Made by a program: the position numbers and the translations under genes. The notes beneath the pieces are model-generated. The model did not search any database. It worked only from the letters and a program-made list of their open reading frames with translations, and had not been told where the DNA came from. A DNA stretch of 64,000 nucleotides, taken from NCBI GenBank assembly GCA_965222115.1, contig CBDCTJ010000007.1, positions 928,001-992,000 of the forward strand. The letters run 5' to 3'. The stretch comes from Planctomycetota bacterium (GTDB lineage: Bacteria; Planctomycetota; PLA2; JAEUHO01). Shown here one piece after another: positions 12,539 to 13,144 of this stretch (its first letter is position 1; the number at the start of each line of letters is the position of its first letter).

Positions 12539-13144
12539 ATGAAGCGCGACTACAGCTCGTTCACGATCGGCATGCTCGTCTTGCCGTTGGGTCTGGTGGG
12601 TTTGGGCGTGGCCCTGGCAAGCAGCGTCAGTACGCCCAATACCTTTGTTGGGGGCACAACGGCCGTCGCGGCAGAGGTCAACGCCAATTTTGCGGCGCAC
12701 GAAGCGGCGATCAACGATAATGATGCTCGCATTGATGCCGATGCGCTTGGACGCAGTGTTATTACCTACAACGGCATACTAAACTTTTCGCCGACAGTCG
12801 ATTTCACGTATGAGAAGGCGAAAGTCTTAGGCTTCTTTACCAAGATGCGAGCCGGTACCGATATCAAGTTGACATGGAACAGCCACGTCGATCACGACGG
12901 GGGGTTTGCGAATTGCCAGCTCCGAGTAAACGACGTTGCGGGCGGAGACGGTTCTGTTGGAGCCGGCGCACTTGTCTGGGGGGGTAGCCGCGTTCCAGCA
13001 AATACTTGGGTAATTTTCCAGGGGCTTCCCGCGGGCGTCCATGAGGTCAGTCTCTGGATTCGCTCGACTGCGGTCACGACTGTCCGGGAGAACGACGGCA
13101 ACTACTCGCGCCAGGTCTTGGTCGAAGAGCAGGCAGCGCAGTAG
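12539..13144 (+). CDS. Secreted protein with N-terminal 'PNTFxxGTTAVAAEVNANF' motif and CTHRC1-C-terminal-like domain
   Basis: 201-aa ORF with GGGAG SD and signal peptide (VALA). Motifs FTKMR, GLPAGVHEVSLWI and SRQVLVEE. The product call is inference. Confidence 0.75.
   Translation: MKRDYSSFTIGMLVLPLGLVGLGVALASSVSTPNTFVGGTTAVAAEVNANFAAHEAAINDNDARIDADALGRSVITYNGILNFSPTVDFTYEKAKVLGFFTKMRAGTDIKLTWNSHVDHDGGFANCQLRVNDVAGGDGSVGAGALVWGGSRVPANTWVIFQGLPAGVHEVSLWIRSTAVTTVRENDGNYSRQVLVEEQAAQ

Follow-up and report, generated by a model that had tools for sequence, protein, structure and literature searches.

CTHRC1 is a much-studied animal protein with parts in wound repair, fibrosis and cancer. Several C1q/TNF-like trimers are lectins, in which the sugar is held between protomers. 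CTHRC1-type domains are already known from bacteria: in the part of the study by Leclere et al. 2020 (PMC7058181) considered here, the Cthrc1 C-terminal domain is present in bacterial metagenomes and in a dinoflagellate, and some of the bacterial proteins have collagen repeats while others do not. The same part of that study models the domain as C1q-like and compatible with a trimer, and it leaves the direction of transfer open. A second described system is the mosaic adhesive trimer (MAT) fibres of Bdellovibrio bacteriovorus, for instance Bd2734 (Caulton et al. 2024, PMC10769870). In the sections of that paper on which we draw, the element of the cell surface to which MATs are attached by their N-terminal domain is still unidentified. 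The word 'lipoprotein' does not occur in the text of the paper.

The locus described here lies in a window of 64,000 nucleotides, which is the whole stretch of DNA that was analysed, in a planctomycete genome of 4.55 Mb (7 contigs, 90.3% complete). It consists of a fibre gene, whose product is called P0001 below, and a small lipoprotein gene upstream of it.

12245..12249, + strand: Shine-Dalgarno-like GGGAG of the lipoprotein gene, 7 nt 5' of the ATG, read directly
12257..12415, + strand: small lipoprotein gene, 52 aa; open reading frame with signal peptide, lipobox Cys, poly-Gly linker and W-x3-W-x3-W tail
12527..12531, + strand: Shine-Dalgarno-like GGGAG of the fibre gene, 7 nt 5' of the ATG, read directly
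12539..13144, + strand: fibre gene P0001, 201 aa plus stop, ATG start; open frame with homologues
12539..12619, + strand: probable Sec signal peptide, residues 1-27, with a basic n-region, a hydrophobic core and A-L-A before S28
12620..12745, + strand: N-terminal module (N-module), residues 28-69 (SSVSTPNTFVGGTTAVAAEVNANFAAHEAAINDNDARI...), predicted to form an N-terminal strand and a short three-chain coiled-coil neck
12746..13141, + strand: C-terminal head, residues 70-201, a predicted TNF/C1q-type jelly roll and probably a divergent relative of the CTHRC1 C-terminal domain

Our best reading of this locus is that P0001 is a membrane-docked trimeric adhesin or lectin. For its structural and evolutionary core, an exported trimer with a neck and a jelly-roll head distantly akin to the CTHRC1 C-terminal domain, we estimate a probability of roughly 0.7.

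The fibre gene is an open frame of 201 aa that starts with ATG, and it has many relatives. When 1.84 billion cluster representatives were searched exhaustively with phmmer, 824 matched P0001 at E<=1e-3, some of them through the N-module alone, 121 at E<=1e-10 and 5 at E<=1e-30. The open reading frame at 12539-13144 can thus be taken as real. All four segments quoted in the initial annotation were found in the protein where that annotation had implied them, namely the helical segment AEVNANFAAHEAAINDNDARID at residues 45-66, GFFTKMRAGTDIKLTWNS at residues 98-115, QGLPAGVHEVSLWI at residues 161-174 and SRQVLVEE at residues 190-197, four residues ahead of the stop. Reading of the sequence also confirmed a sole Cys (C126) and the lack of a collagen-type repeat. 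No run of four or more Gly-X-Y occurs in P0001, and its longest such stretch is a run of three, GGDGSVGAG, in a loop. The short helical segment before the head is present as described; what had been overlooked is that it is part of a conserved N-module that comes with an upstream lipoprotein partner. Judged from the sequence, cleavage of the signal peptide at A27/S28 is probable, and the A/x/A-S junction at this putative site is kept in the paralogues.

The homologues fall into two classes. Members of the first share only residues 1 to ~70 of P0001, that is the signal sequence followed by SSVSTPNTFV.GTTAVAAEVNANFAAHEAAINDNDARI, and have unrelated C-terminal halves. Members of the second share residues ~70-201, often after quite different N-terminal parts. 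The three head motifs of P0001 are conserved blocks of a large, mostly bacterial head family, whose consensus in a head alignment of 20 rows (A1) reads G.FTK..A.T.I...W..HV....G.FC.FQLRIDG ... F.GL.AG.HTV..WVRG.....C..N.GNF...V.VEE. The profile built from A1 matches 126 of 173 collected proteins at E<=1e-3, its 20 seed rows counted. Most members of the head family have a Cys pair that P0001 lacks. Pfam collagen repeats stand ahead of the head in 13 of 109 members (for instance P0069, P0111, P0124 and P0130), and SLH domains were found in nine of these 109 proteins by a Pfam scan.

Searches of Pfam, NCBIfam and PHROGs with P0001 itself gave nothing beyond one weak NCBIfam line. This line, sce4755_fam, was dismissed as noise (E 0.11, 12.6 bits versus a cut-off of 75), and the sequence matches in the PDB were likewise set aside as chance level (CD47 at E 0.34 and superoxide dismutase at E 0.083, from single-sequence and profile searches). 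A word-indexed search with the A1 profile returned 10 proteins, none of them animal CTHRC1, and the same kind of search with residues 98-201 recovered the query alone. Neither a CTHRC1 name nor the accession cited in PMC7058181 turned up in a cluster look-up of ten proteins, and a metagenome scan with alignment A7 retrieved no relative. None of the homology searches, the phmmer search among them, yielded an animal CTHRC1 sequence.

The fold of the head was addressed with AlphaFold2, which was given residues 60-201 of P0001 and 109 aligned rows. The resulting model is all beta with ten strands (pLDDT 91.9, pTM 0.85) and, together with Foldseek comparisons, assigns the head to the TNF/C1q-type jelly rolls. 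Among 19 PDB matches at E<=1e-3, the best was the trimeric C-domain of Chlamydia Pgp3 (E 6.8e-6, TM about 0.6); further matches included C1QL3/C1QL1, the Bd2734 tip, the PLTL lectin, EDA-A1, 4-1BBL and the C1q domain of Caprin-2. The TM-scores were moderate throughout (0.4-0.65). Look-alikes of P0001 proposed by a language model belonged to the clusters of the Bc2l-C N-domain (Bc2l-C_N) and the Pgp3 C-domain. On these models, P0001 would share the ten-strand jelly roll and the trimeric state with the C1q/TNF heads C1QL1/3, Caprin-2 C1q, EDA-A1 and 4-1BBL, and the jelly roll and trimeric state also with the bacterial TNF-like trimers represented by the Pgp3 C-domain, Photorhabdus PLTL and the N-domain of Burkholderia Bc2l-C.

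A trimeric, fibre-head-like beta-sandwich had been proposed for the protein in the initial annotation, along with structure prediction of the trimer as a way to check it, and the prediction bore this out. Three copies of residues 28-201 reached ipSAE values of 0.89/0.89/0.83, versus 0.00 for the best control, with at least 79% of the contacts common to the runs and a partner pLDDT of at least 83. Among proteins of solved structure, the mark set for the prediction tool is attained by 20 of 30 that were solved as pairs and by 1 of 23 that were solved as single chains, a benchmark that is only rough for P0001, which was run with its own alignment and in three copies. As TNF/C1q trimers have already been solved, memory of the model may contribute to the score. 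The inter-chain contacts of lowest error are those of the neck (residues 50-65) and those that link head strands, and residues 28-76 supply most of them. In silico, mature P0001 forms a homotrimer in which a jelly-roll head sits on a short neck.

How this head relates to CTHRC1 was examined with the Pfam model PF25815 (CTHRC1_C, curated cut-off 27 bits) and with bacterial proteins above this cut-off as a stand-in for animal CTHRC1. The direct comparison with Pfam failed: PF25815 matched neither whole P0001 nor its residues 60-201 at E<=10, and a six-frame search of the source genome with the model was equally empty at E<=10. HMMER filters remove most matches above E ~0.1. The model registers at E<=10 on only 3 of the 109 head-family members, the best of them (E 0.0022) lying below the cut-off. 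Pairwise comparison by BLASTP gave a similar picture. P0174, a PF25815-positive protein from a genome of the same family as that of P0001, shares with it both the N-module and the upstream lipoprotein, and the alignment of the two proteins extends over no more than the N-module and the first motif of the head. The connection to CTHRC1 therefore rests on profiles and intermediates.

These results, taken together with Pgp3 and C1q-like proteins as the top structural matches, are what would be expected if the head were a generic TNF/C1q-type jelly roll whose likeness to CTHRC1 came about by convergence of short motifs without specific common ancestry. The ranking of the structural matches has its own explanation, because the structure library contains no CTHRC1 structure: no entry was found in the PDB by sequence, profile or Foldseek search, and no structure paper was found in the literature. 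The profile comparisons are at odds with convergence. When only the heads were compared, the 109-row profile aligned with the heads of P0032 and P0174 at a probability of 97.5% (E 5.2e-12) over 103 columns, which span the FTK block, GL.AG.H.V and the terminal VEE, so that the three motifs follow in order. The same profile scored 0.2% (E 0.36) with the true C1q-type heads of the same gene family and 5.3% with a third head type. With full alignments, the P0001 family and the PF25815-positive proteins were aligned at 98.7% (E 3.6e-16), and A1 and P0174 at 95.2% (E 2.9e-8). Furthermore, the A1 head profile matches all four PF25815-positive proteins that were found, namely P0032 (61 bits with PF25815; 3e-13 with A1), an open reading frame at locus L124 (52 bits; 9e-12), P0174 (44.6 bits; 4e-9) and P0141 (35.6 bits; 3e-15). 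In the reverse direction, a two-sequence HMM of PF25815-positive heads matches 54 family members, P0001 itself not being among them at E<=10. We consider convergence decidedly unlikely on these grounds.

By these sequence profiles, the head of P0001 is genuinely related to CTHRC1_C, though distantly. Because it does not register with PF25815, it is placed in a divergent sister group that the Pfam model misses and not among the plain members of that family. The likeness to the CTHRC1 C-domain claimed at the outset thus holds as remote homology between profiles, with control heads that fail to match, and does not hold as a PF25815 match of P0001 itself. Ancient homology or transfer may account for a head shared with animal CTHRC1. 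The head of P0001 and the CTHRC1_C domain are both about 130 residues long and C-terminal, have the three blocks in the same order and end in V/I-E-E, and the models of both show a C1q-like jelly roll in trimeric form. P0001 has the extreme C-terminal position as well as the end strand of the form hydrophobic-x-E-E, since its VLVEE (residues 193-197 of 201) aligns with LQVEELP of P0032 and LIVEELP of P0174. The 13 of 109 relatives with collagen repeats resemble the bacterial proteins that combine such repeats with the Cthrc1 C-domain in the part of PMC7058181 considered here. In contrast to CTHRC1_C, P0001 and 106 of the 109 head-family members do not register on the Pfam model. P0001 also differs in having one Cys, in having no collagen repeat and in being paired with a Trp-tailed lipoprotein. 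Where animal CTHRC1 has Gly-X-Y before the C-domain, P0001 has a short coiled-coil stalk with a conserved N-module. Towards C1q/TNF proteins, there is no likeness at the sequence level: the C1q model PF00386 does not match P0001, and hhalign with the C1q-type heads of the genome stays at the 0.2% mentioned above.

The N-module is the more constant half of the protein. The source genome has nine N-module genes, two tandem pairs among them, and the N-module of P0001 is 58-76% identical to those of its 8 paralogues with other heads. Heads of at least four kinds occur among the paralogues: the P0001 type, a divergent copy of it (P0014), a C1q-like type with FSG.WLRP at its end, and two further types. 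P0013, a relative whose genome belongs to the same family, reaches 64.3 bits with the Pfam C1q model. Across phyla, 113 stretches were confirmed as N-modules, and within the family the module is found in 5 of 21 genomes, the source genome included. Of 401 genomes sampled from the phylum, only the source genome (two copies) and one other (G025) yielded an A1-type head, and PF25815 was found in two. Given this patchy distribution of heads on one base, the nine paralogues appear to put interchangeable heads on one conserved N-module.

The second constant element is the partner gene. For 9/9 paralogues of the source genome and 7/7 copies in four related genomes, the gene immediately upstream, on the same strand, is of the lipoprotein type, which makes 16/16 copies examined in the family. 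Across phyla, 80 N-module loci were found, 78 of them with enough upstream DNA, and an open reading frame with the Trp tail occurs within 350 nt upstream on the same strand in 56 of these 78. The background frequency of the Trp-tail pattern was 13 occurrences in 367 kb over six frames. The taxa concerned include Planctomycetota, Gammaproteobacteria, Myxococcota, Campylobacterales, Nitrospirae, Mariprofundus and others. Partner length varies from ~45 aa to more than 700 aa and the Trp tail is constant; in the lipoprotein described here it reads VWDSMNWDNDVWQ. The lipoprotein has no Pfam family, and its NCBIfam matches are all sub-threshold.

In part of the metagenome loci, the two elements are joined. 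We examined 24 of 61 such loci, namely the ones with a match to the first residues of P0002, and 20 of them encode, within a single open reading frame, the Trp motif, the N-module and a membrane hairpin that has a basic loop. A signal peptide stands ahead of the Trp motif in 11 of the 20 fused frames, which places motif and N-module on one and the same side of the membrane. The other four loci comprise two with the separate lipoprotein form, one with a separate membrane-anchored form and one interrupted by a stop. In silico, the N-module is therefore paired or fused nearly obligately with a membrane-held Trp motif. In limited searching we found no literature description of a lipoprotein paired with bacterial trimers of the C1q-like or CTHRC1_C kind.

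Put together, these elements suggest the following course of events. P0001 would be exported and its signal peptide cut at A27/S28. The mature chains would then homotrimerise into a particle with an N-terminal strand, a coiled-coil neck of ~25 residues and a jelly-roll head. The lipid-anchored Trp tail would dock the trimer to the cell envelope by its N-module, so that the trimer is displayed on the envelope surface. The head may bind a ligand outside the cell, in the way of TNF-like lectins and of fibre tips such as those of the Bdellovibrio MATs (PMC10769870), and this ligand is most likely a glycan or a surface polymer. As gene pairing alone does not prove binding between Trp tail and N-module, docking is a step that we infer; taken alone, we judge it reasonably probable. 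For a role of the head as lectin or adhesin, which is suggested by analogy, the chances are about even.

A different fate of the trimer would be secretion in soluble form. P0001 would then act untethered, like a signal or toxin in the manner of TNF ligands or Pgp3, and the lipoprotein would be a chaperone, an immunity factor or a regulator. Such a role would suit a mature protein that has no anchor of its own once the signal peptide is cut and whose closest match in fold is a secreted trimer, Pgp3, and docking by the Trp tail is putative. It accords poorly with a lipid-anchored partner that is nearly obligatory (16/16 and 56/78 loci) and with the fused frames that tie Trp motif and N-module to one membrane hairpin (20/24 loci). 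Moreover, what stays invariant in the family is not the head but the N-module, which fits an attachment piece. We therefore regard a soluble trimer as unlikely and retain the membrane-docked adhesin or lectin as our best reading.

The fold also raises the question of a viral source. P0001 could be the receptor-binding tip of a tail fibre that was left behind by a prophage or carried as its cargo. Indeed, the jelly roll is common to many phage and giant-virus proteins, as reflected by 141 matches at E<=1e-3 in BFVD, including collagen-like proteins of giant viruses and fibre proteins of phages, and the language-model neighbours are partly viral. The genes around the fibre gene do not fit this origin, since none of them is a virion gene: they code for a HEAT/VWA protein, for a DUF2130 protein (convergent gene) and for an FtsX/ABC pair. 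Nor was a PHROG family found for P0001, P0174, P0032 or P0074. A prophage origin was rejected on the basis of these two findings, and the nine copies dispersed over the chromosome, each with its lipoprotein partner, add to making it very improbable.

A cellular display function would bring the locus close to the MAT fibres of Bdellovibrio. As far as the consulted sections of PMC10769870 go, MATs are trimeric surface proteins in which the N-terminal part is kept constant and the C-terminal tips, TNF-like in some cases, can be exchanged, and the Bd2734 tip matched the P0001 head in Foldseek (E 1e-3, TM 0.53). The likeness lies in tip fold and architecture. Whereas the MATs in that paper are long fibres of ~600-1100 aa, mature P0001 has only ~175 aa. 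The conserved N-module and the Trp-tailed lipoprotein suggest how short trimeric adhesins might be fixed to the cell, and the same question of attachment is open for the MAT fibres according to those sections of PMC10769870.

Compared with the bacterial CTHRC1 relatives in the portion of PMC7058181 used here, what is new in this locus is a divergent, Cys-less subgroup that is invisible to Pfam, an architecture with a short coiled coil, and a partner gene. The published bacterial relatives are only one part of the picture, and the Pfam model misses a bacterial group that is much larger and more divergent. Of these findings, the lipoprotein partner gene is more interesting than the likeness to CTHRC1. 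It allows a tentative and rather speculative extension, namely a widespread two-part system of bacterial surface display in which a membrane peg with W-x3-W-x3-W holds the N-module of a mini-trimer with interchangeable C1q/TNF heads. The peg would be a tiny lipoprotein or, in the fused forms, the Trp motif on a membrane hairpin. The CTHRC1 C-domain would be one such bacterial tip, of bacterial origin and transferred to the ancestors of animals and choanoflagellates. If this holds, the great and mostly Pfam-invisible diversity in bacteria would speak for a transfer in this direction and not in the reverse. Provided that docking is true, such a display system would weigh more than the CTHRC1 finding. 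For structural work, the small, Cys-poor bacterial heads could be easy targets.

At the level of the DNA, the two genes of the locus are preceded by the same signal, as the TGGGAGTT word and its 7-nt spacing are identical before the lipoprotein gene and the fibre gene. A scan of positions 11900-13400 found no promoter- or terminator-like sites. Without drawing a conclusion from it, we note that the GC content dips to 51-53% over positions 11800-12800, a mostly intergenic stretch, versus ~60% around it.

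The fibre gene of the window (encoding P0001, a 201-residue protein with a signal peptide, an N-module of strand and coiled-coil neck, and a jelly-roll head) has a small lipoprotein gene as its neighbour.

12257-12415, +: tiny lipoprotein gene with a C-terminal W-x3-W-x3-W tail, directly 5′ of the fibre gene
12245-12252: TGGGAGTT word, 7 nt before the ATG of the lipoprotein gene
12527-12534: TGGGAGTT word, 7 nt before the ATG of the fibre gene

In the genome family of G000, the genome containing the window, a Trp-tailed lipoprotein gene was located directly 5′ of the N-module gene in all 16 cases examined; across many phyla, 56 of 78 eligible loci showed the same arrangement. 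The loci behind this pairing are the window gene itself, L002-L009, L016-L029 and L030-L109. The W-x3-W-x3-W tail is constant although the size of the partner ranges from about 45 to more than 700 residues; the lipoprotein gave no match to any curated family. TGGGAGTT is a ribosome-binding context common to the lipoprotein and fibre genes. Neither a sigma-70-like promoter nor an intrinsic terminator was found in window 11900-13400. Between 11800 and 12800, GC content drops to 51-53%, compared to approx. 60% on either side. This stretch includes the 520-nt gap that follows the HEAT/VWA gene, as well as the lipoprotein gene and the first part of the fibre gene.

G000 also carries two tandem pairs of cartridges, i.e. 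N-module genes with their own heads and upstream lipoprotein genes, and both pairs contain one lipoprotein gene per cartridge.

C5:29892-31123 and C7:277169-278084: tandem cartridge pairs (loci L002, L003, L004 and L006)

The two lipoprotein genes of the C5 pair are near-identical to each other, and its heads are C1q-type, ending in FSG.WLRP.

In 20 of 24 metagenome loci examined (L110-L138), a single ORF encodes the Trp motif, followed by a transmembrane segment, a basic loop, a second hydrophobic segment, the N-module and finally the head. In 11 of these 20 ORFs, the Trp motif lies behind a signal peptide, and the fused form at L124 has a head positive for PF25815, the Pfam CTHRC1_C family (52 bits; cut-off 27). 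At L138, the Trp motif is interrupted by a stop.

The head of P0035, a relative of 204 residues, looks circularly permuted by the order of its head-profile matches: profile positions 68-136 correspond to residues 43-124 and positions 11-72 to residues 122-201. The permutation may be genuine, or it may have arisen through misassembly of the sequence. P0001-type heads also occur on the longer proteins P0074, P0091 and P0099 (321-664 residues), the first of which additionally has the EVNENF N-module. The stalks of all three consist of repeated Cys-containing segments and therefore the P0001-type head also caps long fibres.
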